The notes beneath the pieces are model-generated. The model searched no databases and was not told the origin of the DNA. It saw nothing but the letters and a program-made list of their open reading frames with translations. This document shows, one piece after another, positions 2,300 to 63,308 of a DNA stretch of 64,000 nucleotides. Origin of the DNA: a virus; the IMG/VR virus record IMGVR_UViG_3300027976_000006, positions 92,976 through 156,975 of that record; one strand, given 5' to 3'. A program made the translations under genes and the position numbers. The number at the start of each line of letters is the position of its first letter. The first letter of the stretch is position 1.

Positions 2300-3100
2300 A
2301 TGAATAAGACAAATGCACAAAAATTATTAAAACGAATTCGAGCCGAAAAATCTGCTGAGTTAGGTGATTCACTTGGTGACACACTTAGGCAGCAGGTCAA
2401 TCAGCAAATGCAAAATGATGCAATTAAAACCATTCTTAAAACAGTAGCATTGTCTGCCGGAGCGGGTGCTGCATTCCGCGGAGCTATGGGATTTTCCGAC
2501 TTCTCACAAGTTAGTAAAAAAGGGCCACGAGTAGTTGAAATGCCGGTAATATACCCTAAAGAAAAAGACAAAACCTTGCCGAAACCAGAGAAAACCGCAA
2601 TAGATTCTAACGCTAGAGCAACTGCTCCGCATGGTTTGGACTATTATTTGCCTAGTTTACTTGTGGGGGCGCCGCTAGCCGCTTACGGTGGGTGGAAAGG
2701 CGTAGACTTTATTTTAAGTAACGCACGAGAGCAAGAAAGTAAAGCAAAGCTTGAAGCTTCTAAAAAGAAATACGAAGAAGCACTGCTTGGTTCGTACAAA
2801 ACAGCAACTGACGGTTATTTAGATCGTGCGTTTGTTGGATATGCTCAAAAAGTTGCGTTTGACCCAATTGGGGCTACATCTGCTGCATTCAATTCTACTT
2901 TTCCAAACGCTTCTGGGCTTGGTAAAGGTTTGGCTTTAACTTATCTGCTAGCGAGTGTTCCTGCTGGGTATTTTCTAGTAAATAAGGCTATGAAGAAAAA
3001 TAGCAGGAATAAAATACTGGAAGAGGCTGTTGCGGAAAGAGCGCGACGACAAGCGATAGCACAACCTCCTGAACTTTACGCTGTGCCGCACAGCATATAA
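2300..3100 (+). CDS. Hypothetical protein, possible internal virion/ejection protein
   Basis: EKSA, EKTA, YKTA and QKVA motifs alternate with hydrophobic Gly/Ala segments. Confidence 0.75.
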   Translation: MNKTNAQKLLKRIRAEKSAELGDSLGDTLRQQVNQQMQNDAIKTILKTVALSAGAGAAFRGAMGFSDFSQVSKKGPRVVEMPVIYPKEKDKTLPKPEKTAIDSNARATAPHGLDYYLPSLLVGAPLAAYGGWKGVDFILSNAREQESKAKLEASKKKYEEALLGSYKTATDGYLDRAFVGYAQKVAFDPIGATSAAFNSTFPNASGLGKGLALTYLLASVPAGYFLVNKAMKKNSRNKILEEAVAERARRQAIAQPPELYAVPHSI

Positions 3101-3120: not shown

Positions 3121-6100
3121 ATGCTTCCGTTTTCTTCTAATTTGTTTAATCCCGACGCTATGTCCTTGTTGAGTAACGTGCCACAACCGTTGCCAGAAGC
3201 TCCCGTGGTTCCATCGTTTCCAGCGGTTCCGTCGTTTCACGAATTTCATGATACTAATAAAGTTAGATCGCTCATTTACGACAAAGTGCTGAATGCGGCG
3301 CAGCAGGTGCAGCCTATCTCCAACGATCGGCACACGCTGAGGTTATCTGATATAAATTATCGAGATGGTGACAAGTTTAGTAAGCAAGATCAAAAATCTT
3401 CCATTCTCAATGGGAGGACTCAAGGGCGTAGGCTAGAAGGAACTTGGGAGCTCTTGGATAATGCGACACAGCAAGTAATAGACTCCAAGAAGTCAGTGCT
3501 GGCGACTGTTCCGCACTTGACTGATCGTGGCACGTTTATAAATAACGGTACCGAGTATATTTTACGAAATCAACAGCGGTTATTGCCAGGAGTTTATACC
3601 CGGGCAAGGAACAATGGCGAGATTGAATCGCATGTTAATGTTATGGCAGGAAAAGGCGTTTCACACCGTTATTTTTTAGACCCAGAAAAAGGTAGATTTA
3701 AACTCAAGGTAGGCCAAGCATCGGTAGGATTAACTCCTTTGTTGAAAGCTATGGGGGTTACCTCCGAGCAAGCCAAAGAAGCGTGGGGCACGGATCTATT
3801 TGCTGCCAACTATAACTCAGATGACGCTTCCGACTATACACGGCTTAAAGGTATGTTTCTTTCGTCCAAAGAATTACAAGGGCCGGAAGATCAACAGAGA
3901 CAAGCTTTGCTTGCTAAATTTTCTAAAATGGAAATGGACCCCGAAGTAACACGGCGCACGCTGGGAAAGCCTTATGCAAATATGTCATTGGACGCTGTGC
4001 TAGACATCACGAAGAAATTAATAAGTGTTAACAAAAATGAATCAGACCCTGATGACAGGGACGCGCTTCATTTTCAGCAGTTTGTCGGGCCAGAGGATTT
4101 GTTTTCAGAGCGAATCGCACGAGATAAAGGGCAGGTACGCCGTAATTTACTATGGAAAATGTCAGGAAAAGGTAATTTAAGCTCAATGCCTTCGTCCGCA
4201 TTAGACAAGCAGTTGAAAAGTGCATTGCTTAGTAGTGGGTTAGGGCAGGCAATTGAAGAAATCAACCCGACAGACCTTTACGAAAAAACAATGTCGGTTA
4301 CCCGCGTGGGCGAGGGCGGTATTTCTTCCATGGATTCTATCCCCAAAGAATCTCGAAATGTGCAATCAAGTATGCTGGGCTATATAGACCCTGTCCGTAC
4401 TCCGGAATCTGGGCGTGTGGGTGTAGACACTTATTTGGCAAGAGGTTCTCGAAAAGGAAGCGATGGAAAGCTATACGCGCAGTTTCGAGATTTACGAACT
4501 GGTGAAATGGTGTATAAAACTCCACAAGATGTGGCAAACTTAACTGTTGGATTTCCAGGAAGTCTAGAAGGGCCAGATAAGCGGGTGCCGGCAATGCGAG
4601 ACGGCAAAATGCTTCATGTTCCTAAGGATAGTATTGATCTAGAATTACCTAATATGGAAGAGGCATTCAACCCTCTTTCTAATGTTATTCCGATGAAAAG
4701 CCAGGTAAAAGGGCAAAGATTAGTAATGGCTTCTCGTATGACTACGCAAGCTTTACCTTTAGTATCGCCCGAAGCTCCTTTAGTACAGTCGGCAGTTCCC
4801 GGTACAAACGGGAAGCAAAGCTATGAAGAGTTGTATTCGCCAGGGATGGGAGCTTTGCGGGCGACACAAGCCGGTAAAGTTATGGCGGTTACTGACGAAG
4901 GGATTAAAGTGCGTAATGCGGACGGTACCGAGGAAACGCATGAGCTTTATAATAACTTCCCTTTTAATCGAAAAACTTTCTTTCAGCAGACTTCGGTAGT
5001 TAAGCCAGGCGACACTATCCAGCCAAATCAATTGTTGGCCAGTTCTAATTACACAGACAAGGTAGGAACGATGGCTTTAGGGGTAAACGCACGTACTGCT
5101 TATATCCCGTGGCAGGGCAAGAATTTTGAAGACGCGATTGTTATTTCAGATAGTTTTGCAAAGAGAACGGCTTCGTCGCATATGTACCAGCACGAGCTGG
5201 AGATTGACGACAAAACACAATTAGGTAAAAGGCAATTTATCCAAGCATTCCCGGCGACATTTAAAAAAGAAACATTAGCGACTATAGATGATCAAGGAAT
5301 GGTTAAGCCAGGTACGGTAGTTAATTTTGGTGATCCTTTGGTTCTTGGTATTACGCAAAAAGAAAATGCATATAACAAGGTGCACAAACAAGGGCAAAAG
5401 GGATTTAATAACGCAGCCGTACTTTGGGAACATCACGATAGTGGCGTTGTCACTGATGTGGTTATGGGTAAAAAAGGTCCGGTTGTTGTTGTTAAAGCTG
5501 AATCTCCAACGCAAGTCGGCGATAAACTGTCCGGTCGCTACGGGGACAAAGGCGTCATTGCTGATATCATTCACGATAATGAAATGCCACAAGGGGCGGA
5601 CGGTCAACCTTTTGAAGTGTTGCTTAATCCTCTTGGGATAATTAGTCGAACTAATCCTGCGCAAATGTCTGAATTGTTTTTAGGAAAAATAGCGGCTAAG
5701 CGGGGAACGCCGATTAAAGTAGATGATTTTGATACTAAAAAAGACATGAGCCAATGGGTGTTGCAGGAATTAGCCAAAGAAGGTTTGTCTGACTTAGAAG
5801 ATATTGTAGACCCATCTAAAGATCAAAAAATTAACAATGTGGCAACGGGTAGTCGTTTTTTTATGAAATTGCACCACACTGCTGAATCTAAAGGGCAGGG
5901 TAGAAGTGGCGGAGCTTACACTACGGAAGATGCCCCAGCTAAAGGCGGTACGGAAGGTTCTAAGCGCATAGGTTTGATGGATGCCAACGCATTGCTTTCT
6001 CACGGGGCTACGGACACGTTACAAGACATTTTCACAATACGCAGGCAAAAAAATGACCAGTATTGGATGCAATTTATGGCTGGTTACGATCCAAAAATCA

Positions 6101-7587
6101 CTACAGTTCCTTTTGCATATCAAAAATTTGTGAATCAGCTGCGCTCGGCTGGCGTTAATGTGGTCAAGCAGGGAACGCAGACTCAGATTATGGCGATGAC
6201 GGATAAGGACATTGACAGTTTAGCTGGAGACCGTGAGTTGACTAACGCAGATGGCGTAGAGTGGGGTAACCAACTAAAAGAGATCAACGGCGGACTATTC
6301 GACAAGGCTAAGACTGGAGGGCATGGCGGGACACGCTGGTCATTCATCAAACTTCATGAACCTTTGCCCAATCCTGTGATGGAAGAACCTATTAGGTCCA
6401 TGCTTGGACTGACAAAGAAAAAGTTTGAAGGTGTAATAGCGGGTACAGAATCTTTAGACAAATACGGCAGCGGTACGGCAGCGCTGCAAAAAGCATTAGA
6501 AAATTTTAATGTAGATGCGGAAATTTCTAAAGCACGCGCAGTTATTTCCGCAGGTAGAGGCTCGCAGCGAGATGAAGCAATCCGTAAACTTAGTTATGCT
6601 AAAGCGGTGCAGAAGCTTGGGTTACAGCCTAAGGACTATATGCTGACCAAGGTACCGGTTCTTCCTCCAATGTTTCGTCCTGTTAGTCTGATGAGTAATG
6701 GTATGCCTTTGGTTAACGATGCCAACCACCTGTACAAAGAGTTGTTTGAGGCTAACCAGAATTTCAAGAGAATGCAGCAAGAAGTCGGAGAAGATGCTTC
6801 TGGGACAGAACGCCTCTCTACCTACCAAGCGTTTAAAGCGGTGACTGGGCTGGGGGATCCTATTAGTGCAAAAAGCCAAGAAAAGAATGTTCGTGGTGCA
6901 TTAAAAAATGTATTTGGAGAAAGCCCTAAGTTCGGGGTGGTGCAGCGTAAGTTGATTTCTTCCACCGTTGACAATGTAGGGCGTGCTGTTATTACCCCAA
7001 ACCCATCTTTGGATATGGACTCTGTTGGTTTACCGGAGGATAAAGCATTTAAGGTTTACGAAAAGTTCGTCACCAGAAGATTGGTGCGACAAGGTATGTC
7101 GATGCTGCAGGCTCGTACCCAACTAGAAGACAAGACGCCAGTAGCCCGTAAGTTACTGGTTGAAGAAATGGAGCATAGGCCAGTGTATATTAGTCGTGCC
7201 CCTGTGTTGCATAAATTTGGGATTATGGCAATGAAGCCAAGATTGACTAAAGGAAATACATTGCAGGTAAGCCCATTAATTGTAAAAGGGTTTGGAGCTG
7301 ACTTTGACGGGGACACTATGAATTATCATGTGCCCAGCACAGAAAAAGCTAGAAAAGAGGCTTTAGATCGTTTACTTCCCAGCCGTAACCTTTTTAGTAT
7401 AGCTGACATGAAGTCGGTAATGCACGCTCCTGCTAACGAATACATTGGCGGGTTGTTTATGGGGACAGACCCATCACGTAAATCCACGCGGCCTGTCCGG
7501 ATTTTTCAAAACATACAGGATGCGAAGCGAGCACACGAAAGTGGAACTATTTCGGTCAATGACCCTGTCCGAATTTTAAATGGTTAG
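3121..7587 (+). CDS. rpoBC: Phage DNA-directed RNA polymerase, beta subunit fused to the N-terminal (catalytic) half of beta'
   Basis: Beta motifs in order: GTFINNGTE, RTPESGRVG, MASRMTTQALPL, NFEDAIVIS, GDKLSGRYGDKG, LNPLGIISRTN, MKLHH, LRSAGVNV. Then beta' motifs: GGLFD, PVLPPMFRP, VGRAVI, RAPVLH, GADFDGD (7294-7314). ATG 3121 follows GGAG; the ORF track starts at TTG 3103. Confidence 0.95.
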   Translation: MLPFSSNLFNPDAMSLLSNVPQPLPEAPVVPSFPAVPSFHEFHDTNKVRSLIYDKVLNAAQQVQPISNDRHTLRLSDINYRDGDKFSKQDQKSSILNGRTQGRRLEGTWELLDNATQQVIDSKKSVLATVPHLTDRGTFINNGTEYILRNQQRLLPGVYTRARNNGEIESHVNVMAGKGVSHRYFLDPEKGRFKLKVGQASVGLTPLLKAMGVTSEQAKEAWGTDLFAANYNSDDASDYTRLKGMFLSSKELQGPEDQQRQALLAKFSKMEMDPEVTRRTLGKPYANMSLDAVLDITKKLISVNKNESDPDDRDALHFQQFVGPEDLFSERIARDKGQVRRNLLWKMSGKGNLSSMPSSALDKQLKSALLSSGLGQAIEEINPTDLYEKTMSVTRVGEGGISSMDSIPKESRNVQSSMLGYIDPVRTPESGRVGVDTYLARGSRKGSDGKLYAQFRDLRTGEMVYKTPQDVANLTVGFPGSLEGPDKRVPAMRDGKMLHVPKDSIDLELPNMEEAFNPLSNVIPMKSQVKGQRLVMASRMTTQALPLVSPEAPLVQSAVPGTNGKQSYEELYSPGMGALRATQAGKVMAVTDEGIKVRNADGTEETHELYNNFPFNRKTFFQQTSVVKPGDTIQPNQLLASSNYTDKVGTMALGVNARTAYIPWQGKNFEDAIVISDSFAKRTASSHMYQHELEIDDKTQLGKRQFIQAFPATFKKETLATIDDQGMVKPGTVVNFGDPLVLGITQKENAYNKVHKQGQKGFNNAAVLWEHHDSGVVTDVVMGKKGPVVVVKAESPTQVGDKLSGRYGDKGVIADIIHDNEMPQGADGQPFEVLLNPLGIISRTNPAQMSELFLGKIAAKRGTPIKVDDFDTKKDMSQWVLQELAKEGLSDLEDIVDPSKDQKINNVATGSRFFMKLHHTAESKGQGRSGGAYTTEDAPAKGGTEGSKRIGLMDANALLSHGATDTLQDIFTIRRQKNDQYWMQFMAGYDPKITTVPFAYQKFVNQLRSAGVNVVKQGTQTQIMAMTDKDIDSLAGDRELTNADGVEWGNQLKEINGGLFDKAKTGGHGGTRWSFIKLHEPLPNPVMEEPIRSMLGLTKKKFEGVIAGTESLDKYGSGTAALQKALENFNVDAEISKARAVISAGRGSQRDEAIRKLSYAKAVQKLGLQPKDYMLTKVPVLPPMFRPVSLMSNGMPLVNDANHLYKELFEANQNFKRMQQEVGEDASGTERLSTYQAFKAVTGLGDPISAKSQEKNVRGALKNVFGESPKFGVVQRKLISSTVDNVGRAVITPNPSLDMDSVGLPEDKAFKVYEKFVTRRLVRQGMSMLQARTQLEDKTPVARKLLVEEMEHRPVYISRAPVLHKFGIMAMKPRLTKGNTLQVSPLIVKGFGADFDGDTMNYHVPSTEKARKEALDRLLPSRNLFSIADMKSVMHAPANEYIGGLFMGTDPSRKSTRPVRIFQNIQDAKRAHESGTISVNDPVRILNG

Positions 7588-7667
7588 GAAACTAAGTAAT
7601 ATATCTCTATCGTAGATTTTAATTAGGGTTTAGAATCACAAGGTGAGATGACACAAGGAGTATGATT

Positions 7668-8414
7668 ATGGCAGTTAATTTTGAATTGTTACGAATGGCA
7701 CGACAAAGCATAGGAAAAAAACACTTATCTAAATATGCATTCGTTGCAGCGGGTGACCCGGCTATGGGTGCTCCCCCGATGGACCCTTCTATGGGCGGTG
7801 GCGGTGCTCCCCCGATGGACCCTTATATGGGCGGTGGTGGTGCTCCCCCGATGGACCCTTCTATGGGCGGTGGCGGTGCTCCCCCGATGGACCCTTATAT
7901 GGGCGGTGGCGGTGCTCCCCCGATGGACCCTTATATGGGTGGTGGCGGTGCTCCGCCCCCAGCCGACCCGATGGCTGCAATAATGCCGATGATTCAGCAA
8001 GCGGTACAGCAGGCAATGTCCGCCAACGGCGGAGGACAAGCACAAGCAACGCCGTCTGGGCTCAGACCTAAAATCGATATCAATGTCGAAATTGTACAAA
8101 TTAAGAAAATGCTTGCCAAAATTATTGACTCACTTGGTATTCACGTGCCTGTGTCTGATATGGTGGTAACACCTGAAGATTTAAATCAAATTGCGCAAGG
8201 TGGCCCTGGCTATGCGGCGGCAACGCCCGACCAGCCGGCGGGCGGGGGTGGGCTTGGGCAGATTCAGCCTGTTTCTCCCATGAAAGCGGCAGAGGCCTGG
8301 GAAAGTGGTGCAGCTTTCAGTTTACCTTCTGATTATTACCCAGCGCAAACAGCGCATAAAAGTAAAAGTGTAGCGGAGTTGGCTACTGCTCTTTTAATGC
8401 GAAAATCTATGTAA
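7668..8414 (+). CDS. Gly/Pro/Met-rich repeat protein
   Basis: AAGGAG 7 nt before ATG 7668 (track start 7662); five GAPPMDP(S/Y)MGGG repeats; KYA and KAA motifs. Confidence 0.8.
   Translation: MAVNFELLRMARQSIGKKHLSKYAFVAAGDPAMGAPPMDPSMGGGGAPPMDPYMGGGGAPPMDPSMGGGGAPPMDPYMGGGGAPPMDPYMGGGGAPPPADPMAAIMPMIQQAVQQAMSANGGGQAQATPSGLRPKIDINVEIVQIKKMLAKIIDSLGIHVPVSDMVVTPEDLNQIAQGGPGYAAATPDQPAGGGGLGQIQPVSPMKAAEAWESGAAFSLPSDYYPAQTAHKSKSVAELATALLMRKSM
7767..7958 (+). repeat. 36-nt coding tandem repeat, 5 copies plus a partial copy
   Basis: Unit GGTGCTCCCCCGATGGACCCTT(C/A)TATGGG(C/T)GGTGG(C/T), with no spacers. Confidence 0.95.
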
Positions 8415-8426
8415 GGAGTTTATGTT

Positions 8427-8651
8427 ATGTTCATTGTGGAGGTTCTTACTACCGTAGGGAAACCTCCACTTAGGCTTCCTGCTTCTCAAGTTGTAGTGCG
8501 TATGCCGGATGGCACTCCAATTAGCGTGGCGGCTTTGTTCGGCGGGGTTACTAGCGTTTTGGTATCGCATTGTGAAGACTCTAGCTTCAATGACAATTTA
8601 CGTAAGTTAGGCATTAACGAAACCGTTATTTCTACAAAGGTACAAGTGTAA
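8427..8651 (+). CDS. Small hypothetical protein
   Basis: AAGGAG upstream; 74 aa; predicted beta-rich. Confidence 0.75.
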   Translation: MFIVEVLTTVGKPPLRLPASQVVVRMPDGTPISVAALFGGVTSVLVSHCEDSSFNDNLRKLGINETVISTKVQV

Positions 8652-8652
8652 T

Positions 8653-9228
8653 ATGGACAATTCTTTGCGCTCTTCCGACATATATTACAGAGATAGGCAA
8701 CCAATAGTTGTGCCTAAGCCTGTGCCGATGCCGACTTATCGGCAATCTTCTAACGAAAGTTTTTCCAATAATAAATATTATGCGGAGATGTCAACACCGG
8801 CTGGCACAGACGACATAGTTAAAATGCAACTGCGACCAAAAAAAGAATCGGAATTGGAGTTAGCGGATAACTGGGACGGTATAGCAACTTTTCAGAATGA
8901 ATTTAAAGAAGGTGCCACTTCTATCGTGGTAAAATCAACTGAAGCTGTAATCCTGCAGTTACAAGTTGCTGTGGATATGGCAGTCGGGCGTAACGAGTTG
9001 ACGAGAGAGCAGGTAGACTCTATAACTTTTGTAGCAACAGCTCGTGCCCCGATTTTTGCGGTACCAAAAGTGCCTCCGATTAAAGAAACAACTGTTTCTC
9101 CCAAGAGCACACCCGAGGCAGCCGATATCCTAAACGCCCCGACTAAACCGGGCAATAAAAAGGCAAAGCGGGGCATTACCCTGAAAGACATTGCAGCTGT
9201 GTTTGATGTCGACGATAGCGACGCTTAA
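8653..9228 (+). CDS. Hypothetical protein
   Basis: Starts 1 nt after the previous stop; 191 aa. Confidence 0.7.
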   Translation: MDNSLRSSDIYYRDRQPIVVPKPVPMPTYRQSSNESFSNNKYYAEMSTPAGTDDIVKMQLRPKKESELELADNWDGIATFQNEFKEGATSIVVKSTEAVILQLQVAVDMAVGRNELTREQVDSITFVATARAPIFAVPKVPPIKETTVSPKSTPEAADILNAPTKPGNKKAKRGITLKDIAAVFDVDDSDA

Positions 9229-9269
9229 AATCCAGATTTTAAATAATTTGTTCAGGGCAAAACTATTTT

Positions 9270-12200
9270 ATGTTGAACACAACCGTTGGGCAATTGTTGA
9301 TTAATGATGTACTCCCCGAAGAGATGAGAGACTCGCACCGTGTGTTAGATAAGAAGGGGTTGCAATCTTTATTACAACAAGTGGCGCAACAATACCCAGA
9401 ACGCTATCGAGATATTTCTTTTCAGCTAAGCCAGCTAGGTCAAAGCATGGCGCAGCAGCAGGGTGGTATGTCGTTTGGTCTGCGACATCTGCAAGTAAGT
9501 AAAGCGGCTATGGCATCTCGGCAGAAAGTTAAAGTTTCACTTGCTAATATACTAGCGGACGACACATTGACGGACCGCCAACGAAATGACCAGATTATTC
9601 TTGCTGTTGGCAAGGAAAGTCCCGAGCAACAAAAGCAAGTTCTGGCAGAAGCATTAAAAGACAAAAACCCGCTTGGGCTGCAGGTGATGTCGGGAACCCG
9701 CGGTAAGTCGATGAACCTAACTAGTCTGCTGGGTTCGGATATGTTGTATTCTGACCAGCGTGACGAAGTGATTCCGATTCCTGTATTGCACAGTTATAGC
9801 GAGGGGTTGTCACCTGCGGAATATTGGGCTGGAACTTACGGGGCGCGCAAAGGGATTATGGCAACTAAGTTTGCCACACAAGAAGCTGGTTTTTTTAACA
9901 AGCAGCTAAACCAAACTAGTCATCGTCTTGTGGTTACGGGAGAGGATGCCGAGGAGGACAAAGACGCACCTATTCGTGGCTTGGTGGTAGACACCGAAGA
10001 TGCGGATAACGAAGGTGCTTTATTGGCCCGTGACGCAGGTCCTTACGCACGCAATACCCCACTTACCCCGAAAATACTAAACCATTTACAACGGCTAGGG
10101 CACCCTAGAATTTTGGTACGCTCCCCGCTAGTTGGTGGTTCTCCCGAGGGTGGTGTTTATTCTAGAGATGTAGGTATTAGGGAAACAGGAAGGTTGCCGG
10201 GTATTGGGGAGCAAGTTGGGTTGCAGGCTGCACACGCTCTAAGTGAACCGATCAGCCAAGGGCAACTATCTGCAAAGCATTCTGGTGGGGTTGCGGGGCA
10301 AGAAAAAGCTGTAAGCGGGTTTCAATATTTAAACCAATTAGTGCAGGTTCCTAAGAAAATGCAAGGCGGGGCAGCCCATTCCCTTACAGATGGCACGGTG
10401 CAGCGGATTGAGGCAGCTCCAGCGGGTGGTAGCTATGTGACCATCGGGGATAAAAGACATTATGTAGGAGTAGGGTATGAGCTTAAAGTTAAAAAAGGAG
10501 ACGAAGTAGAAGCTGGTGATGTAATTAGTACGGGGATTCCTAACCCCGCAACTATTACAGAGCATAAAGGAATTGGGGAAGGTCGGCGATATTTCGTTAA
10601 CGAATTTCGTAAGGCTATGGGTGACAGCGGAATGTTCGGACATCGGCGTAATGTTGAAGTGTTGGCAAGGGGGCTTATCAACCACGTAAGGTTGACGGAA
10701 GAAACTGACGATAACGTTCCTGATGATATTGTACCTTATTCAACGCTTGAGCACACTTATAAGCCGCGGGCAGACTATCAGCGATTAACGCCCAAGCGTG
10801 CGTTAGGTCAATATCTTGAACGACCTGTGCTGCATTACACCATAGGCACCAAGATTCAACCCTCGATGCTTAAGAATTTTGAAGAATTTAAAGTTAATGA
10901 AATTCCAGTGCACAAGAACCCTCCTCCATTTGTGCCACAGATGGTACGTGGGTTGTATCAAATGCAGCACGACCCCGATTGGATGACACAAATGTATGGG
11001 TCTGGGCTGAAGAAAAGTTTTTTAGACTCGGTTACGCATGGTGCAGTTAGCGAAGAGCGAGGTACAAGCTTTGTGCCGAGTTTGGCCTTGGGGCTTAATT
11101 TTGGTGAAGGCAGTGATCGTGCCGTAATAAAGCCGAAGTCTGGGGCAACTCCTCCTTTTTTTGGTGGCAGTTTTACTCCGGGTCAAACTAAATTTGCAGC
11201 AGATACTCCGAATGTCTCTGCCCCGCCTTCTGCTTCTAAACCGCCTGCTGTTTCTACCCCACCTAGAACTTTAGCTCCGGGCACAAACATTATGCCGACA
11301 GCACCGACACCTGTAAAAGCACCTACACCTGCTCCGACATACTCGAACTCTAACGCAAATCAATTTAGTAATTTAATGCATAGTAATTCTCCCTTTGCTC
11401 AACAAACCGGGCAGGCGTTGAATCAAATGAATCCATTACACGCAATGATGATGTTGGGGGGGATGGCTAATAATAATAATAATAATAATATGTCTAGTAA
11501 TATAATGAATGGGTTTGGCGGGCAAAATAATGGTGGAATGTTTAATATGTTTAATGGGGGGCAAAATAATAACGGGCAAAATAGCGGAGGAATGTTCAAT
11601 AATATGTTTAATATGCCCAGCTCGTACGATTCGGAATCTAACATGCCTGCTGAGCCTGTAACTGAAAGCCCATATGTCTCGGCTCAAGGTCCAGTAAGTA
11701 ATACTGCCTCTGGTGCTGCGTATGACACCGCAGCAAAGGGGGTAGGTGCGGGATATTCAGCAGTAGCAAATAAATTTTCAAGTCCTCCTATCTCATCTAA
11801 TATTATGCCTCCGCCGTTGCCTAGAACACCTCCTCCGATACCCGCTAAGCTTCCTCCGATACCCGGAATGACTCCTCCTCCGATACCAGGAATGACTCCT
11901 CTTCCGCTGCCTGGGGTTAAACCTCTGGCTGGTATGCTCAGTAAAGCCACTTCAATAGGTGGTACAGGTTTAAAGTTAGTAAGTAAAGCGGCACTGCCAC
12001 TATCTGTGGCTCTGGACACAATAAACGTCGGGCAAGACATATACAACAAAGGTTGGGATAATACAACTAACGACGCAGCACAAAAATGGCGAGATATACT
12101 TTCGGCCAAGGATGGGCTACATACCTTGTATCAAGCTCCATTACAAGTTCTAAACCCTGTGGCTAATGCACAATTAATTGCTGGCGGGGCAACACAGACT

Positions 12201-12890
12201 GCCCAGATGGTAGGAGAAAAAGCACAAGAAGGGCTAACCCATGCGTATGACAAAGTAACGGGTACGGATACTCGTTCTCGTAATTTTGCAGAGGACAAGA
12301 CACAAGTTAAAAACATGGAGTTAGAAAATCAAAGAGATTTAGAAGGACAAAGAGCACTAAATAAGCCGAATCCAAATCTACCCCCAGATAGGTTAGCTTT
12401 AAATACGCAAGAAAATGCCCGTCTTGATGCTAAAATACAAGATTCTAAAACGAGGCAAGGAAATACGGCGGATGAAACTGCAAACTGGAGGCTAGGCCAG
12501 CAAAATTGGTTTGGCAGTGGTGGCCACAAATTTAGGGATGCTATGCAAAATTCGATTACTAATTCAGCTGCCGAATTGCAGGGTTTAAATAACGGAGGCA
12601 CACTAGATGCAGGGCAGCAGGCTAGGAAAGAACAGTTAGAAAACGGACAAGCACAGCGTAAACAAATGATCGGTACTTACGATCGGGAGGGCGGGGCATC
12701 TGGTAAAGGTTTGTTTAGTACAGATATGCGCAACCGGGTTAGCAGTCTTAAGGAAAATATTGTGCAGGTCGGTTCACAACTTAGAGACCCCAACCTTCCT
12801 CCGGACCAAAAAGCAAAATTAGAGGCACAATTAAAAAATAATAATGAAATGTTAGAAGAATATCGAGGATGGGCAGAAAGTTCTAAATAA
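9270..12890 (+). CDS. rpoC: Phage RNA polymerase beta' C-terminal half (bridge helix, trigger loop) with a long C-terminal extension
   Basis: TTVGQLLIN, SGTRGK, bridge helix YSEGLSPAEYWAGTYGARKG, trigger loop GEQVGLQAAHALSEPISQGQLSAKHSGG, RRNVEVLARGL. RNAP similarity ends near aa 610-640; the rest is Pro/Asn-rich and then helical. Confidence 0.92.
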   Translation: MLNTTVGQLLINDVLPEEMRDSHRVLDKKGLQSLLQQVAQQYPERYRDISFQLSQLGQSMAQQQGGMSFGLRHLQVSKAAMASRQKVKVSLANILADDTLTDRQRNDQIILAVGKESPEQQKQVLAEALKDKNPLGLQVMSGTRGKSMNLTSLLGSDMLYSDQRDEVIPIPVLHSYSEGLSPAEYWAGTYGARKGIMATKFATQEAGFFNKQLNQTSHRLVVTGEDAEEDKDAPIRGLVVDTEDADNEGALLARDAGPYARNTPLTPKILNHLQRLGHPRILVRSPLVGGSPEGGVYSRDVGIRETGRLPGIGEQVGLQAAHALSEPISQGQLSAKHSGGVAGQEKAVSGFQYLNQLVQVPKKMQGGAAHSLTDGTVQRIEAAPAGGSYVTIGDKRHYVGVGYELKVKKGDEVEAGDVISTGIPNPATITEHKGIGEGRRYFVNEFRKAMGDSGMFGHRRNVEVLARGLINHVRLTEETDDNVPDDIVPYSTLEHTYKPRADYQRLTPKRALGQYLERPVLHYTIGTKIQPSMLKNFEEFKVNEIPVHKNPPPFVPQMVRGLYQMQHDPDWMTQMYGSGLKKSFLDSVTHGAVSEERGTSFVPSLALGLNFGEGSDRAVIKPKSGATPPFFGGSFTPGQTKFAADTPNVSAPPSASKPPAVSTPPRTLAPGTNIMPTAPTPVKAPTPAPTYSNSNANQFSNLMHSNSPFAQQTGQALNQMNPLHAMMMLGGMANNNNNNNMSSNIMNGFGGQNNGGMFNMFNGGQNNNGQNSGGMFNNMFNMPSSYDSESNMPAEPVTESPYVSAQGPVSNTASGAAYDTAAKGVGAGYSAVANKFSSPPISSNIMPPPLPRTPPPIPAKLPPIPGMTPPPIPGMTPLPLPGVKPLAGMLSKATSIGGTGLKLVSKAALPLSVALDTINVGQDIYNKGWDNTTNDAAQKWRDILSAKDGLHTLYQAPLQVLNPVANAQLIAGGATQTAQMVGEKAQEGLTHAYDKVTGTDTRSRNFAEDKTQVKNMELENQRDLEGQRALNKPNPNLPPDRLALNTQENARLDAKIQDSKTRQGNTADETANWRLGQQNWFGSGGHKFRDAMQNSITNSAAELQGLNNGGTLDAGQQARKEQLENGQAQRKQMIGTYDREGGASGKGLFSTDMRNRVSSLKENIVQVGSQLRDPNLPPDQKAKLEAQLKNNNEMLEEYRGWAESSK
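11469..11615 (+). repeat. (AAT)7 and GGQNN/MFN low-complexity coding repeats
   Basis: Encodes NNNNNNN and repeated GGQNN and GGMFN units. Confidence 0.85.
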
Positions 12891-13270: not shown

Positions 13271-15745
13271 ATGGAAATGCCTAAGCAGAGTAATTCAATA
13301 AAGAACGCCAGCATAGGCGGTAAAGGCGGGGAGACGGAATTTGCCCAGGCTTTTTCCAGCTTAGCCTATGCATACCTAAAAGACAAGGCACCACGACTTC
13401 TTGACTATATGTTGGGTTTTCAGCTAATTGATCGCAATGAAGATAATACTAAAGCAGTTGGTGTTTTTGGTTTCCAGCTCGACAAACAGTGGCTTTATGC
13501 CCCTGTATTTTTTTTAAACGGCGATTTAAAAGGGCATGAGTTGCTATACGTAAAAAACAATGATTCATTTGTTCCGATGAAAGAAAACTGGATTAACTAT
13601 CTGATGAGTCGAAAGCCTCATATTTTAGGCGAACCTTCAGTAAACAAATTGCAAGAGCTTGGTGGGATTGCTCCTGACATTAATTCGTTGTCCTTGTCAC
13701 CTACCGGCAACAAGAACGCAAGTGACATATATTGGCTTCGTCCAGTGCTACCCATGCTGGCAGCTTTTAAAGTAAAACTTGCTAACTCCTTGTATCGAGG
13801 AGCGGGCAATCGGCAGCTTGATCAAAAGGCGATTGTTCGATCGCCATTTACGGCTGCATTAGCCAAGACTGCTTCAAATCTGGATTTTAACCAAGTTCTG
13901 CCTAAAAGTCTCTTACTGCTTGAAGCTGCCTATGACTTAGCCGAGCGGTACCCTGCCATCAAAAAAGCTACTTGTGATTTTTACGGAGCTAACTGTTTTT
14001 CACGCTGGGGGAAAGAATTTAGAAGCAATACGATCAAGCAAGCTAGCAGCATTCTTTATTCACCTACCACGGTCACACTTACATCTACTAATTTGTTAAG
14101 CGGGGCAGCACAATCGAGGCCTACCATCGATCACATTAAAGAAGGCAAGCTACAAGTCGTTACTTCCGTAACTTCGGATCAAGGCGGGCTGGATACTAAA
14201 GACCAAGAGAACTTATTGCAGGGCAAGATAGTTATTAAGGATAGGCGAGAAGATGCAGAAGTAAGTAAAGTCTATGCAACAGAAAACGAGATTAGACTTT
14301 TCAATCCTTCTGAAACCGAACTGTACTCTGTACTGGAGAAGTCTGGAGAATTTAGCAAAATGCTGGTGGTGTTAAACGGGATTAGCAGCCGCGGCGCTGA
14401 ATATATGACCACAGTAATACGCATAGACGATAAGGATAGTCAGAACAAAAGTTGGTTAAACGCAGACAATACGGCAGTTTTTGCTACGCAAGTTTCCATG
14501 GACAAAAATGATTGGAAAGATTGGTTCGATGGTTTATCCTCCGAGACTGACTTAGCCGAGGAGGCTGAATATATTGCGATAAACGCCACCCATTCCGCCA
14601 CTGCTCCTTTTCATGTACTCACCGATATGGGAGATGGGCAATATAAAGTAGATTTTCGCATAAGTAAAGATTATCTATCTTCTCGTGACTCGCTGCTGCC
14701 ACAGGTACAATCGCGCTACGCTAGCGGGGGCGACAACCGCACTCGCGGTGTGACTCTAATTGTGGGTAAACAGGATAAACCAGGGCTTAGACTTCGACCC
14801 CTGTCCAGCGAACTGTGCGTGCCTGCATCTTTTAAATTTATTAAACTGTCTGATGGTTCTTCCTCTGGCTTTTTTGGTAGTTGCGGTTGTTCTCCTTTGG
14901 ACGAAGATTCAAACCCAATTAAGTTAGGTAGCTTAAGCGACATTCAACGATTGCTGGTTGAAAAAACAGCCAGGCTTAAAGTGTTCAATAACGGAACTGA
15001 CGTCTACCTGGATTCGGTTATTGGCTCTGTGCAGTTAAGTAAAAAGGCAGCATTATGCCAGCTGGTCGCCACACATGGCCTACGCGAAAAAGCAGCCATG
15101 GACATGCTGAAAAAAGCGGAGCAGAAAGGACATGCTGTTTATCGTGTTCGATATGCCCCAGGTTATGGGGCCGAAAAGCAAGCTGCTCCAAATACCAGTG
15201 TGCTAGCTGGTGGCCCTACTTTCCCGCTTGATACTGAATCAAATAACGATGGTAGTGAGACTTATGGCCCTAGCACTTCTGTCCGAACCCAGACTAGTAC
15301 GGAAAAAACTTCGCCCATACCTTCATTAAGCGGGCGTAACACAAATAGGTCCAAGTGGGACAACTGGCAAAACTTCGAGGCTAAGGATTTTAAGCAAAAT
15401 CTGCAGGCGGCACAAGTCGCGGGCAAGGAAGGGCAGAAAGAAGTGTTTGATGTTTCGATGATGGCTGGTATGTTAAAAACAGTGCGACAAGATTCAATTG
15501 TAGACCGCCACTTAGGTGATTTAATGTCGGCGTTAGATTCGCTAGGTCGTTTGATAATGAATTTCTACTGGCACCAGGAAGAATTTGAAGATCGGTATGG
15601 CAAAAGTGATCTTCCGGAGTTGGAAGATAGTTTGCGTAACGCTTTTGAATCTCTTGGGGATATCACACTTTTCTTAAAAGAAAAAACCATAGAATCGTCG
15701 GCGGATAAAGGTGATATTAACTTAGATGAAGTTTCAAGGAACTAA
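13271..15745 (+). CDS. Large hypothetical head-region protein
   Basis: 824 aa; KNAS (twice), KLAN, KTAS, KQAS, EKTA and EKQAA motifs; no family recognised. Confidence 0.8.
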   Translation: MEMPKQSNSIKNASIGGKGGETEFAQAFSSLAYAYLKDKAPRLLDYMLGFQLIDRNEDNTKAVGVFGFQLDKQWLYAPVFFLNGDLKGHELLYVKNNDSFVPMKENWINYLMSRKPHILGEPSVNKLQELGGIAPDINSLSLSPTGNKNASDIYWLRPVLPMLAAFKVKLANSLYRGAGNRQLDQKAIVRSPFTAALAKTASNLDFNQVLPKSLLLLEAAYDLAERYPAIKKATCDFYGANCFSRWGKEFRSNTIKQASSILYSPTTVTLTSTNLLSGAAQSRPTIDHIKEGKLQVVTSVTSDQGGLDTKDQENLLQGKIVIKDRREDAEVSKVYATENEIRLFNPSETELYSVLEKSGEFSKMLVVLNGISSRGAEYMTTVIRIDDKDSQNKSWLNADNTAVFATQVSMDKNDWKDWFDGLSSETDLAEEAEYIAINATHSATAPFHVLTDMGDGQYKVDFRISKDYLSSRDSLLPQVQSRYASGGDNRTRGVTLIVGKQDKPGLRLRPLSSELCVPASFKFIKLSDGSSSGFFGSCGCSPLDEDSNPIKLGSLSDIQRLLVEKTARLKVFNNGTDVYLDSVIGSVQLSKKAALCQLVATHGLREKAAMDMLKKAEQKGHAVYRVRYAPGYGAEKQAAPNTSVLAGGPTFPLDTESNNDGSETYGPSTSVRTQTSTEKTSPIPSLSGRNTNRSKWDNWQNFEAKDFKQNLQAAQVAGKEGQKEVFDVSMMAGMLKTVRQDSIVDRHLGDLMSALDSLGRLIMNFYWHQEEFEDRYGKSDLPELEDSLRNAFESLGDITLFLKEKTIESSADKGDINLDEVSRN

Positions 15746-17461: not shown

Positions 17462-18824
17462 GGCAGATGAACAGCAGCTACTAGCTGGCGTAAAAAAGGC
17501 TGTGGACTTGGTTGATAACCAAAACATAGATCCTACCGATGCCATGTATCAAGTAGCAAAATCTATGCAGTTTTCTCCCGGATTTTTAAAAGCAGCTTGC
17601 AACGCTTTTAACACAGGGAGACAGCTCGCCCAGTGGAACGCTAATGATTCTGCGCTGGATAAGCTGGCTAGTTTTACTTTGGCAGATTACTCGACAGTAC
17701 ACGACAGAATCTGGGGACAAAAAGTAGAAAAAGTTGCTTCAGTATCTAATTTTTTACCTGTCTTTGATTCTTACGAAGAACAAGCAAGACAGCAGTTTCT
17801 CCGCGCGGATTTAACTACGCTGGAAAAATCGGCAGCTGAAGTGCAACAGCACCCGTTAGCGCTGGAAGAGTACGCTGGAAACAAAGTCACAAAAAACTAC
17901 TCAAACTACGACTATTGCCGGCGTATGGCCGAAGAAGCTAGGCGAGAAAAATCAGCAAACGAAGACAGATTAAACCTTAAGCTACATCTGCTGGAAAATT
18001 ATTTCCGTAAGTTTGCCCAGGATCGGGTGCCGTTGGCACAAGTAGAACATGCTGTTTCAGTTTGTCGTGGCGCGGTGGGTAAGACACTTATGGACCACGT
18101 GGCGGGGAAATTTCAAAAAGAAAAAAGAGCAGCAGATCACAAAGCTAGCTGGGTAGGTTTTCAGCAAGAAGTCGACTGGAAAAAAGAACCTTACACATTA
18201 ATCGATGCCACAATAAAACAAGCTAGAGATTACTACAAGTCTGCGCTGGCACTGCAAAATCTAGAGATTAAAGCGGCAGAAGCTAAAGAAATTACTACTT
18301 CTTTTTATCGCCCTTATGTACCCAGCTATCCGGATAGCCGGCCTCCTTCTGTTAATCTTATGGAAGAAAAACGAGGGGCGGCACTTGCAAGCGGATTAGG
18401 GGGAGGACTAGGATTAGGATTAGCAAGCAGCATCGCTGGTTTGGCACGGGATTCCCACGACAAACTAGTAGACAAACAAATAAGGGAGTTAGATGCCCCT
18501 GACCATTTAAACGAGTTGCGAAAAATCAGGGCACAGACGGTACTCACTCAACTAATGAGTGATCCTGAAAATCCTTTAAGCCAATACGATCCAGAGGAAG
18601 TACTGGGTAAATACAATGAAATGGTGCAATTATCCCCAAGACTTGCAGATCAATCTGCAAGCATTGGACCTTTGTTAAACAAACGAATGCTTGGTAATAC
18701 GGAACCTTTTGAAATTTCTGAGCTGTTGAAAATGGAAGAAAGTGCCAAGAAAACTCAGACTTCACCTTCTCGTGACGATAACCAAATAGGAAACGCGCAA
18801 AATGGCAGCATTATCGCTAAGTAG
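17445..18824 (+). CDS. Helical head-region protein, possible internal virion protein
   Basis: ATG 17445 follows GGAG (track start 17400); DKLAS, EKVAS, EKSAA, KFAQ, EKRAA motifs; Gly zipper GLGGGLGLGLAS. Confidence 0.75.
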   Translation: MQPLNKADEQQLLAGVKKAVDLVDNQNIDPTDAMYQVAKSMQFSPGFLKAACNAFNTGRQLAQWNANDSALDKLASFTLADYSTVHDRIWGQKVEKVASVSNFLPVFDSYEEQARQQFLRADLTTLEKSAAEVQQHPLALEEYAGNKVTKNYSNYDYCRRMAEEARREKSANEDRLNLKLHLLENYFRKFAQDRVPLAQVEHAVSVCRGAVGKTLMDHVAGKFQKEKRAADHKASWVGFQQEVDWKKEPYTLIDATIKQARDYYKSALALQNLEIKAAEAKEITTSFYRPYVPSYPDSRPPSVNLMEEKRGAALASGLGGGLGLGLASSIAGLARDSHDKLVDKQIRELDAPDHLNELRKIRAQTVLTQLMSDPENPLSQYDPEEVLGKYNEMVQLSPRLADQSASIGPLLNKRMLGNTEPFEISELLKMEESAKKTQTSPSRDDNQIGNAQNGSIIAK

Positions 18825-19923
18825 TATTACTTATGAGCAAGGGTTGCAGTTACTGGCGGCTCGAAAGCAGGCTTTTGACTCGGGGCGTATCCGTCGTATG
18901 TCTAAAGAGGCAATGGCTACTTCCTTTTATTTGCGCGACATCGGTACAGATTTTTTAGGGAAGGTAGCAGAATCTGGTTTGCTCGATTCTTTAAAATCCG
19001 GATTTGGAAGTTTAGGATCTATGGATGCTTCTACGCGTAATGTGCTGTTATCGGGGTTAGCCGGTGCTGGCGTTGGGGCAGGCACAAATGCGGCATCCTC
19101 CCTACTGAAAGGCGAAGAAGGGGTAGGCTGGAAAGCGTTAACTGGTGGGTTGGCCGGTGGGGCTGTTGGGGGCGGGATTGGTTTGGCGCTTAACCCGGAT
19201 ATACTAAGCAAATTTGTTGACAAAAATCAAAACGGGCCACCCGATTCTACCCCTCCAAATAGAAATTCGCAAGTAGCTGCGGCTATAAAAAGCAGATCCC
19301 CAGCAGAACAGTTAGCGGAAATAGACAAGTTACAAGGTGTGGCAGACAGCAGTATGCCAGAAATTAAAAGCTACGCGGCACATGGGGCAAACGTGGCGGC
19401 GGGTGGCGCTGCTGGTGCCTATGTGGCAACTAGAGCTACATATAATCCTGATGACATTGCACATAAGCTACGCACCGAGCTACACATGGCAGACCCTAGC
19501 AACACTCACACCTACGAGCGGTTTCATCGTGGAATGACAGCCCCAGACCTCGGCGTAATTGACGACGTAGCCCGCGCCAAACTTAGAGATGACATGCTTA
19601 AAATGACTCGCGATCAGTTTAGAGATGCATATGTGCCTAAATCTCGGTTTGGGCGTATTCCTTCTACTTTTGCGAGTAATTTACATACAGCTGCCCCTAA
19701 CATGGCTGATGCGATTCTTAAAAACAATACTGTAACTGGCGGTATGTTTACTGGTGCGGGCAAAATACGATCGGGCAAGGCAGGTATACTGGCGGCACTA
19801 GCCGGACTCGTTGCGGCAGGGGCTGGGACTATACGCCACAACTACAATCAAAATAATGCAGAACGCAGCAATGCACAAGAAACATTAAAATCGTTAGCTG
19901 GTCTTACTAAGCAACAGCAGTAA
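18802..19923 (+). CDS. Glycine-zipper protein, possible ejection protein
   Basis: GLAGAGVGAG, GGLAGGAVGGGIGL, AAGGAAGA and GILAALAGLVAAGAG segments after GKVAE. Confidence 0.7.
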   Translation: MAALSLSSITYEQGLQLLAARKQAFDSGRIRRMSKEAMATSFYLRDIGTDFLGKVAESGLLDSLKSGFGSLGSMDASTRNVLLSGLAGAGVGAGTNAASSLLKGEEGVGWKALTGGLAGGAVGGGIGLALNPDILSKFVDKNQNGPPDSTPPNRNSQVAAAIKSRSPAEQLAEIDKLQGVADSSMPEIKSYAAHGANVAAGGAAGAYVATRATYNPDDIAHKLRTELHMADPSNTHTYERFHRGMTAPDLGVIDDVARAKLRDDMLKMTRDQFRDAYVPKSRFGRIPSTFASNLHTAAPNMADAILKNNTVTGGMFTGAGKIRSGKAGILAALAGLVAAGAGTIRHNYNQNNAERSNAQETLKSLAGLTKQQQ

Positions 19924-19935
19924 AGGAGCAAAGCC

Positions 19936-21414
19936 ATGGCGTTAATTAAACTTGTTTCTCCTGCTGGTTGGGACTTTGATCAGCAAATTGTTTCTCCGAT
20001 TAAAGTGAGTAGCCGTGGATTGATTGGTAACGATCGTCAAGAGTTTTTAAAACGGGCTAGTCATTCTTTTTTGGACCAGTTAGATAATGTTAAATTTGCC
20101 TCAGACGAAGTTCCTGTGCATTTAATCGCATTAGGTGCAAGTGAAGCTTATGGCCCCAATAGAAACGGTGATGGGTTTAAAGAAGCCACTTGTCGCGAGC
20201 ATCATGACACCTTTGTTAAATTTGCCAAATTTTTTCGCAATCATAAAAACAAGGCCGAGCGAGGCGATCCTTTCTATGGTGTGGTTAAAGCTTCTGCTTA
20301 TAACGAAGATATGCGACGGGTAGAATTGCTTTGTGCTTTAAACGCAAGCAAAGCAGCCGCGGATCGGAATGGTGGTTTTATTGCAGATACCGAGTTAGAA
20401 AAGATTGCGAAAGGCGAAGACATAGGCGTAAGCATGGCGTGCCGTGTTTCCCATGACGTTTGTTCTTTTTGCAAGCACGCAGCTAAAACACGAGACGAAT
20501 ACTGTACAAGAGAAAAGTGTGCAGCGGGTGGGTGCAAGGAAAATCTCACTAAGCTAGTAAAAGTCGGTAATGATGTGCATCATTTGCATGTCGACAATCC
20601 CAACCCAGTTTGGTTTGACATCAGCCGAGTTTTTCGCCCCGCGGATCGTATTGCTTATGGCACCCGTGCAGATTACCTAACCAAAGCAGCCGCAGATTCC
20701 GGCATATTCGAACTGCAGGATTACATCAAATTAGCTTCGGCTTCTACTGCTCCTCTGGCTGTCATTTTGTACCAAGCGGGGCACCACGGTTTATGGTCGG
20801 AAAAAAATACTGCCCAAGTTAAATTAGGATATGGGCTTGCTGCTCTTGAAAAATTTGCAGAAATGCTGGATGCTAATACTTACCGAGCCGTAGTAACCTC
20901 TGCTTTTCCTATAGAAAGGCTGGCAAAATTAGGTTCGGCACACTGTGATAAGCAGTTAGCCGCGTTGGCAGATAATAAAATATTTTTAACATTGTATGAT
21001 TATGCACGATTGGCAGGACAAGAAAAGTACATGAAAGCTGCAGCCGCGATACTCCCCGAAATATATACGCTAATGGCCGAGGATGAATCCTTGCCTTTAG
21101 CAATTGAGCGCGGGGTCGGCTCAATTGGCGATAAAACAGCTAATGAAAGTGCTAGGGCGTTTGCTGCCACGTTGACGGCGAGTCATTCGTTTCACCGAGT
21201 GGCAGCGGAAGACCGAAACCTTTTGAGCTGTATACGTGGGCAGGCTGCTCCTACGATCTGGCAAAAGGCAGCTGCATATAATTTGGAAGGCGAAAGCCTA
21301 GCCAAGGAGTATGCAATGTATAAGCTAGCAGGGTTATGGCGATTGGCTGCACTAGACAACGACTTTACTTCAACAGTCAAGTTAAGTCTTAAGCAGAATA
21401 GAATATTTAACTAG
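19936..21414 (+). CDS. Putative prohead (capsid maturation) protease
   Basis: NRNGDGF, FRNH (candidate catalytic His), GVSMAC (candidate Ser), CSFC Cys cluster, FDISRVFRPAD. Lies directly before the scaffold and capsid genes. Confidence 0.75.
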   Translation: MALIKLVSPAGWDFDQQIVSPIKVSSRGLIGNDRQEFLKRASHSFLDQLDNVKFASDEVPVHLIALGASEAYGPNRNGDGFKEATCREHHDTFVKFAKFFRNHKNKAERGDPFYGVVKASAYNEDMRRVELLCALNASKAAADRNGGFIADTELEKIAKGEDIGVSMACRVSHDVCSFCKHAAKTRDEYCTREKCAAGGCKENLTKLVKVGNDVHHLHVDNPNPVWFDISRVFRPADRIAYGTRADYLTKAAADSGIFELQDYIKLASASTAPLAVILYQAGHHGLWSEKNTAQVKLGYGLAALEKFAEMLDANTYRAVVTSAFPIERLAKLGSAHCDKQLAALADNKIFLTLYDYARLAGQEKYMKAAAAILPEIYTLMAEDESLPLAIERGVGSIGDKTANESARAFAATLTASHSFHRVAAEDRNLLSCIRGQAAPTIWQKAAAYNLEGESLAKEYAMYKLAGLWRLAALDNDFTSTVKLSLKQNRIFN

Positions 21415-21454
21415 GTCATCGGAACTCGGTGCCGTTTTCAAGGAGTACATCTAA

Positions 21455-23776: not shown

Positions 23777-23838
23777 TTTTTAAATATTAACTCAATCTAA
23801 CCACAAGTTTGATTGATACCACAAGGAGGTTTTTACGC

Positions 23839-45831: not shown

Positions 45832-45853
45832 GTTTAACAAGGAGTACTTAGTT

Positions 45854-46594: not shown

Positions 46595-46597
46595 GCT

Positions 46598-63295: not shown

Positions 63296-63308
63296 TAGGA
63301 GAGAAAGG

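Follow-up and report, generated by a model that had tools for sequence, protein, structure and literature searches.

The window analysed here is the last 64 kb of the 156,975-bp IMG/VR virus record IMGVR_UViG_3300027976_000006, whose completeness is put at 76% by CheckV, and nearly all of its genes lie on the plus strand. It carries two genes for a bacterial-type RNA polymerase (RNAP). The first encodes chain 1, a fusion of the beta subunit with the catalytic N-terminal half of beta-prime. The second encodes chain 2, the C-terminal half of beta-prime. The parts of the two chains are located as follows, in window coordinates and in amino acids (aa) of the chain concerned.

3121 to 7587, plus strand: RNAP chain 1, beta plus the N-terminal catalytic half of beta-prime, 1488 aa from ATG 3121.
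4243 to 4320, plus strand: counterpart of the rifampicin-binding region in beta, from a gapless HMMER alignment to Francisella beta.
5518 to 5556, plus strand: beta active-site lysine motif GDKLSGRYGDKGV, aa 806-818.
6118 to 6213, plus strand: fusion junction, comprising the end of beta (aa 1006-1020), a linker (aa 1021-1028) and the start of beta-prime (aa 1029-1037).
6304 to 6339, plus strand: short Gly/His loop in place of the beta-prime N-terminal zinc ribbon, from the family profile.
6682 to 6828, plus strand: beta-prime lid and clamp helices, aa 1194-1242, predicted docking site for the phage sigma factor.
7300 to 7314, plus strand: catalytic DFDGD, aa 1400-1404, in the local motif GADFDGD.
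9270 to 11189, plus strand: core of RNAP chain 2, the C-terminal half of beta-prime, aa 1-640.
9840 to 9908, plus strand: bridge helix of chain 2, aa 191-213, aligned to Streptomyces beta-prime.
10206 to 10292, plus strand: trigger loop of chain 2, aa 313-341, aligned to Streptomyces beta-prime.
11190 to 12890, plus strand: lineage-variable C-terminal tail of chain 2, about 570 aa, delimited by comparison with relatives.

A preliminary description of this DNA had beta running without a stop into beta-prime at about 6160-6190 and onward through DFDGD. Translation bore this out, as a single frame from 3103 (TTG start) to 7587 is free of stops and contains the sequence strings that had been quoted; ATG 3121 is the start chosen by other gene callers, and chain 1 numbers 1494 aa from the TTG and 1488 aa from the ATG. 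Hidden Markov model (HMM) mapping placed the Pfam domains Rpb2_3, Rpb2_6 and Rpb2_7 at aa 382-981, followed on the same chain by Rpb1_1 and Rpb1_2 at aa 1169-1421 (E-values of 6.8e-50 for Rpb2_6 and 1.3e-23 for Rpb1_2), in agreement with the earlier view that both double-psi barrels reside on one polypeptide. When aligned to a solved structure, aa 115-1041 of chain 1 corresponded to residues 86-1074 of the 1100-residue cyanobacterial beta subunit, and aa 1120-1486 to residues 184-552 of the 624-residue gamma subunit. Similarity to bacterial beta and beta-prime chains in the PDB was strong (E-values of 1e-65 and 1e-48, respectively). The invariant residues and linker lengths given here were counted in a family alignment of 28 members with identity down to 40%. 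D807, K808, G814 and K816 of the lysine motif are invariant, K808 and K816 being both active-site lysines, as are D1400, D1402, G1403 and D1404 of DFDGD. An AlphaFold model of aa 560-1494 reached a predicted local distance difference test score (pLDDT) of 83, and its top structural matches were bacterial beta chains.

At the junction itself, the beta C-terminus occupies nucleotides 6118-6162, an 8-aa linker occupies 6163-6186, and the beta-prime N-terminus begins at 6187. The family profile of this region matched aa ~1029-1075, which include GGLFD (aa 1063-1067), with beta-prime residues ~15-63, and the next stretch with E. coli beta-prime 160-304, the region of the lid and clamp helices. The length of the linker was constant across the alignment, with an indel in two rows only, and the AlphaFold2 model showed a helix and a beta-hairpin at the junction (pLDDT 70-88).

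The remainder of beta-prime had been described as a new gene starting at TTVGQLLIN 1.7 kb downstream. We located it at 9270-12890, after a gap of 1.68 kb that contains three small open reading frames (ORFs); the 1206-aa product opens with M-L-N-TTVGQLLIN and contains Pfam Rpb1_5. Its aa 2-492 aligned to Streptomyces beta-prime 659-1168 (E-value of 5.7e-36), with the GARKG motif and the trigger-loop histidine kept. Chain 2 starts exactly at the point where chain 1 stops on beta-prime: the end of chain 1 faces position ~552-560 of the 624-residue gamma subunit, and rpoC2 residues 5-13 are matched by residues 23-25 of chain 2. The split thus falls after the catalytic barrel and precedes the cyanobacterial gamma/beta-prime boundary by ~25-70 residues, and it is this more upstream position that leaves the TTVG segment at the head of chain 2, consistent with the earlier remark that cyanobacteria split nearby and keep TTxGR on the N-terminal half. 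The long tail of chain 2 consists of low-complexity Pro/Asn/Gly/Met sequence with PPxP repeats, a hydrophobic stretch and a charged helical end. It is nearly absent in one relative (L009), in Salmonella phage Arash and in Vibrio phage D69, and alignable in part in three others (L007, L008 and L010). The stand-alone chain-2 family comprised at least 1835 matches, with a typical length of 625-665 aa.

The same layout was found in many other phages. A word-indexed search recovered 736 relatives of chain 1, and each of the 120 listed, at 53-93% identity and from contigs no longer than 233 kb, combines Rpb2_6 with Rpb1_2 in a single chain. In an exhaustive phmmer search with aa 560-1494 as the query, the best 150 representatives of 50%-identity clusters all scored E-values below 1e-235, and the matches of ordinary length crossed the junction in one stretch. 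A search of viral metagenomes for the same junction, as the preliminary description had proposed, was run on IMG/VR and found 522 related loci; the best 80 of these were examined for junction and gene order, and all 80 spanned the junction. The C half of beta-prime was present on none of 265 chain-1 proteins, chain 1 was present on none of 120 beta-prime-C proteins, and the chain-2 N-terminus was conserved among the 120 beta-prime-C relatives. Junction and split end points are unchanged in four isolates, Arash and the Vibrio phages D69, D148 and D181, at about 30% identity, and the same fixed-length linker recurs in Arash and D69; the Arash proteins are Gp206 (1525 aa) and Gp216 (606 aa; OQ632216). 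Because junction and end points agree at only ~30% identity, the layout is ancient, and it defines a very large phage family rather than a peculiarity of one contig.

These data bear directly on whether fusion and split are artefacts of misassembly, of a frameshift, or of a split intein that rejoins the halves of beta-prime, an explanation that could appeal to the richness of the family in inteins and to the origin of the window in a metagenome assembly. A misassembly or frameshift at the junction was ruled out by the exact 1488-aa protein on five contigs, by hundreds of independent assemblies and by four isolate genomes. Rejoining by a split intein was rejected as well, since the end of chain 1 and the start of chain 2 abut on contiguous beta-prime sequence with zero spare sequence, which makes intein halves impossible. 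We therefore assign an artefact a negligible likelihood. As an observation in its own right, the polymerase of this clade is apparently an intein hot spot: many relatives (for example P0054, P0107 and P0192 for chain 1, and P0423 and P0425 for chain 2) have lengths of 1800-3350 aa and are matched in 2-6 separate stretches; among the precomputed matches, intein or LAGLIDADG Pfam domains occur in several of these; and break points recur, one of them a few residues past DFDGD (query position ~847). The polymerase genes of the window are themselves intein-free.

As for novelty, the preliminary description had known of no characterised enzyme with a fusion plus a split. This part stood, as full-text literature searches found neither a description of the layout nor a characterised enzyme that has it; the layout is nevertheless not unique to this DNA, since isolates in GenBank share it. 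Their sequences are already public there, labelled plainly as beta and beta-prime. The Arash paper uses the same names and leaves the architecture undiscussed (PMC10585845).

Comparison with known systems places the phage enzyme apart from each of them. In the rpoB-rpoC fusions of Helicobacter and Wolbachia, the beta C-terminus likewise runs into the beta-prime N-terminus in one frame. Those fusions join a complete beta to a complete beta-prime (~2900 aa) and retain alpha, omega and the zinc sites. Here, no whole beta-prime follows beta; the chain is cut after the catalytic barrel, as the 0/265 count for the C half illustrates. The gamma (rpoC1) and beta-prime (rpoC2) subunits of cyanobacteria and plastids are likewise split shortly past the catalytic barrel, whereas cyanobacteria differ in having a separate beta subunit, in possessing alpha, omega and zinc sites, and in a split site downstream of that of the phage. 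Within the phage family, Arash and the three Vibrio phages share the junction, the split, a single polymerase set and a sigma-like orthologue in the tail module; they differ in their ~30% identity, in having the portal gene adjacent, and in lacking both the long tail of chain 2 and a P0003-like gene.

Among other phage enzymes, the phiKZ/AR9 RNAPs are also phage-encoded, lack alpha and omega, and split beta-prime in the same general place. Polymerases of this type work without alpha or omega, and one form is packaged in the virion for early transcription (PMC7598289). Both of their large subunits are split, beta into 2-3 pieces, two paralogous sets are present, and there is no sigma homologue (PMC7598289, PMC7824862), whereas the phage described here has an undivided, fused beta, a single set and a sigma-70-family factor. 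Against phiKZ/AR9-type families, the PHROG scores were 4e-25 or worse, far below those of bacterial-type profiles. In the crAss-like gp66 and in YonO, both double-psi barrels are likewise on one polypeptide, and the crAss enzyme is a virion protein. According to a survey, these two are too divergent for detection by the COG0085/COG0086 profiles (PMC7481178), unlike the present enzyme, which is clearly bacterial-like and has half of beta-prime on a separate chain. The mReC phages of that survey resemble ours in being large uncultured tailed phages with deep-branching bacterial-type beta and beta-prime. The mReC entries seen there list separate ORFs for beta (~990-1560 aa) and beta-prime (~900-1200 aa), mostly adjacent (PMC7481178, Weinheimer & Aylward 2020). 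The stated filter for inclusion was a beta-prime match of at least 800 aa with NADxDGD (PMC7481178), and as described it would exclude the present family, because the catalytic motif lies on the beta-bearing chain. The contig names in the supplement showed no overlap with the IMG/VR relatives, and one mReC contig with several polymerase pieces differs in carrying ribonucleotide reductase and helicase genes between them. Two profiles, phrog_24349 and phrog_25354, were considered as the nearest unfused phage relatives and rejected; each of them finds matches in all 14 cellular control genomes too and is for that reason uninformative on ancestry. Separately, Rhizobium phage RHph_Y65 (Kleczkowskaviridae) has a whole beta-prime-like gene at 8755-12138 of locus L004 (1127 aa), and the beta-type PHROG profile found no match anywhere in its 207-kb genome.

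Cellular RNAPs assemble on an alpha-dimer platform and have a zinc-stabilised beta-prime. The absence of alpha and omega genes from the window, as first described, was confirmed by searches of both the window and the whole 156,975-bp record: for alpha (PF01000, PF01193) there were zero matches in either, and for omega (PF01192) the whole record gave one sub-threshold match only, inside a 1730-aa protein; the controls were all positive. No second copy of Rpb2_6 was present in the record, and a single polymerase set was also found in the complete genomes of Arash and D69, which were searched for further beta and beta-prime homologues. The enzyme may be independent of alpha, and the tethered barrels could plausibly substitute for the alpha-dimer assembly platform. 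Alternatively, the core might be a hybrid, in which the large-subunit parts of the phage borrow alpha2 (and omega) from the host, as the Helicobacter fusion uses alpha. Natural rpoB-rpoC fusions do coexist with alpha, and most of beta and beta-prime is retained here, so surfaces that contact alpha could persist. An enzyme that acts from the virion would, in contrast, need to have been put together in the preceding host, using that host's alpha, and the phiKZ/AR9-type enzymes function without alpha or omega (PMC7598289). Alpha is also unreported among the virion proteins in the Arash data that were available, from which host proteins may have been left out of the search (PMC10585845). On balance, we regard such borrowing as rather improbable.

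The rifampicin-binding region of chain 1 aligns to Francisella beta without gaps, and the substitutions in the pocket are, in E. coli numbering, D516 to E, H526 to K, R529 to S, S531 to T and L533 to V. Since five classical pocket residues differ, the enzyme is probably insensitive to rifampicin, judging from these positions and from established knowledge of rpoB.

The genes between and beyond the two chains that concern the interpretation are the following.

7662 to 8414, plus strand: Pro/Met-rich 250-aa protein with PPMDPxMGGGGA repeats, Cys-free, candidate accessory or packaging factor.
8427 to 8651, plus strand: 74-aa protein, candidate small subunit.
8653 to 9228, plus strand: 191-aa Cys-free protein, found in close relatives only (3/80 loci by tblastn).
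19936 to 21414 and 29448 to 32255: structural proteins, from comparison with Arash.
23809 to 24786, plus strand: major capsid protein, 29% identical to Arash gp226 (E-value of 1e-35).
45854 to 46594, plus strand: sigma-70-family factor of 246 aa, Cys-free, in the tail/baseplate module, the only one in the record.
47843 to 49504: baseplate wedge protein, from comparison with Arash and from PHROG.

The 246-aa protein belongs to the sigma-70 family, with domains 2, 3 and 4 recognisable by sequence and fold. Pfam Sigma70_r3 scored 24.9-25.3 bits against a cut-off of 25.3, while a profile built from 35 family members found SigA in the PDB at 1.8e-12 and matched RpoS across residues 78-312. The AlphaFold model had a pLDDT of 84.5, and every Foldseek match listed for it was a sigma factor, with a probability of 1.00. 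The protein is the orthologue of Arash gp10 (E-value of 4e-15), and its gene precedes the baseplate wedge gene by two genes in this record and by three in Arash; no second sigma factor resembling Arash gp196 was found in the record. In a complex prediction, aa 985-1260 of chain 1 together with the sigma-like protein scored 0.63, compared with 0.00 for the best of three controls, although solved holoenzymes may be remembered by the predictor. A score this high was obtained for 58 of 80 solved complexes and for 2 of 110 mismatched pairs. The runs shared at least 45% of contacts, the pLDDT of the partner was at least 70, and the predicted interface joined the clamp helices (aa 1194-1242) to the N-terminal helices of the sigma-like protein. 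Because holoenzyme structures are solved, such a prediction shows likeness rather than binding. The sigma-like protein is probably the promoter-specificity subunit.

Chain 2 lies downstream of chain 1 on the same strand in 73 of the 80 related loci, at a distance of 0.87-7.7 kb, and the two are never adjacent. A homologue of the 250-aa protein sits between the RNAP genes in 67 of 73 related loci, and one of the 74-aa protein in 72 of 73 (61-85% identity in the five loci L007-L011). The 250-aa protein had no match in Pfam or PHROG and was mostly disordered in its Atlas model; the 74-aa protein belonged to no recognisable family, and the ESM Atlas gave no usable lead for either. In Arash and D69, the 74-aa family was not detected by a small HMM, and the 250-aa gene was also not found. 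The preliminary description spoke of a two-chain RNAP, and two core chains are indeed what the genes encode; since two small genes almost always sit between them, that term may nevertheless understate the enzyme. It is probably incomplete, given also the sigma factor, and the conservation of the small proteins makes them candidates for extra subunits or packaging factors. As a further observation on the order of these genes, an 824-aa gene after chain 2 (13271-15745), without a family assignment, is conserved in 62 of 80 loci.

The polymerase genes had been placed inside the head module. More precisely, they stand at the 5' edge of a long co-directional block of capsid, tail and baseplate genes, with the major capsid gene 11 kb downstream, whereas the portal and terminase genes, identified by comparison with Arash, are found 28 and 70 kb upstream, respectively. 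When 34 window proteins were annotated with PHROG, the polymerase, the baseplate wedge and some weak matches were recognised, and otherwise almost nothing. The longest intervals lacking any ORF of at least 70 aa towards the record's 3' end are 61469-62055 and 63296-63615.

Neither RNAP chain contains a single cysteine in its 1494 and 1206 aa, against a proteome background of 1.3% (P ~2e-9 for chain 1 and ~1e-7 for chain 2), and 105 of 119 chain-1 and 108 of 120 chain-2 relatives are likewise free of cysteine. Both zinc sites of beta-prime (Cys4) are consequently lost. At the N-terminal one, the family profile has ~27 positions in the Gly/His loop, compared with ~93 residues, including the Cys4 ribbon, in bacterial beta-prime. 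Among the 82 proteins of at least 200 aa in the record, 14 lack cysteine. The genes of 10 of these are grouped in the structural region; both polymerase chains, the sigma-like factor, the capsid protein and the Met-rich 1730-aa protein belong to this group. Strong cysteine depletion is common to the Arash and Vibrio phage counterparts. The absence of cysteine may mark proteins that reside inside the head or are ejected. Cysteine-free proteins were noted in the window at 2300-3100, 18802-19923, 21455-22708, 23809-24786, 37275-42467 and 45794-47347, and in the record at positions 1947-2831, 63260-63961 and 77740-81829.

That the polymerase is packaged had been suggested from the position of its genes among head genes. 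Packaging finds support in the proteomics of the Arash orthologues rather than in gene position. Arash virions were purified on a sucrose gradient and analysed by liquid chromatography-mass spectrometry, and no protein was detected more often than Gp206 (128 unique peptides and 3516 spectra; PMC10585845). The corresponding values were 40 and 1210 for Gp216 and 24 and 467 for the sigma factor Gp10, compared with two unique peptides each for replication enzymes such as ligase, primase and two helicases. By analogy with Arash, the virus particle probably contains the enzyme. In the same data, the Arash 'DNA helicase' gp217 (20067-21485 of locus L001), encoded beside the gp216 gene, was as abundant as Gp216, with 38 unique peptides and 1148 virion spectra; BLAST found no homologue of it in the record.

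These peptide counts are also where a polymerase that never enters the virion has to be considered. On that account, the enzyme would be made after infection for middle and late genes, the host RNAP would transcribe the early ones, and its detection in Arash particles would reflect carry-over of a highly abundant protein. The Arash preparation contained 116 proteins, metabolic enzymes such as ribonucleotide reductase among them, and its authors themselves allow that abundant enzymes may have been carried over (PMC10585845), for which reasons we take the proteomics as good evidence and not as decisive. No packaging signal or propeptide was identified, and a phage sigma factor could redirect a host enzyme as well as a phage one. 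Carry-over nevertheless sits poorly with 128, 40 and 24 unique peptides against two for the replication enzymes, with polymerase and sigma genes that lie within structural modules in both distant lineages, and with an extreme depletion of cysteine that the polymerase has in common with the capsid protein and with the 1730-aa protein of the tail region. We consider a polymerase confined to the infected cell unlikely.

We put at about 70% the probability that the two genes encode a working bacterial-type RNAP of the phage, with a core divided into a chain of whole beta plus beta-prime-N and a chain of beta-prime-C, with docking of a sigma factor, and with delivery in the virion. In such an enzyme, chain 1 would contribute a near-complete beta, an 8-residue tether, and beta-prime from residue ~15 to ~560 (clamp, lid, clamp helices and catalytic barrel), and chain 2 would contribute the funnel, bridge helix, trigger loop and jaw, along with, in this lineage, a dispensable low-complexity tail. 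With both barrels joined covalently, a single molecule would form the active centre. The phage sigma-70-family protein would dock on the retained clamp helices and set promoter specificity. As the Arash analogy suggests, core and sigma would be late products, synthesised alongside the structural proteins; the virion would carry them and release them together with the DNA for early transcription. The polymerase would probably serve later in infection too, since it is the only one that these phages encode.

Several points weigh against this interpretation besides the protein content of the Arash preparation. The argument for packaging is transferred from an orthologue of 30% identity, and the adjacency to the portal gene seen in Arash and D69 is not kept, the portal lying 28 kb upstream here. 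The record is only 76% complete, and a gene missing from it may therefore be present in the phage; recruitment of host alpha and omega is conceivable; and neither of the conserved small genes has been given a role. The 246-aa protein has no Pfam match to Sigma70_r2, and a k-mer screen of 62 intergenic gaps for a promoter motif returned A/T-rich words only.

A bolder version, which we offer as a doubtful possibility, is that this would be the first sigma-dependent multisubunit RNAP delivered from a virion. A two-chain core free of zinc and cysteine would then be ejected with its own sigma factor and the DNA, the ~160-230-kb phages would be independent of the host polymerase and insensitive to rifampicin, and the small proteins would be substitutes for alpha and omega or packaging adaptors.

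The family amounts to an evolutionarily successful natural experiment, in which the catalytic barrels are tethered, beta-prime is cut at another place, and alpha, omega, zinc and cysteine are dispensed with, while initiation of the sigma type has apparently been retained despite these losses. Two large proteins would make a compact system for studying assembly and sigma function, and cultured members, Arash and the Vibrio phages, allow direct testing. Marker surveys that need separate ORFs for beta and beta-prime overlook a large phage clade. Among abundant aquatic phages, the enzyme is likely to represent a new class of transcription machinery that arrives with the virion.

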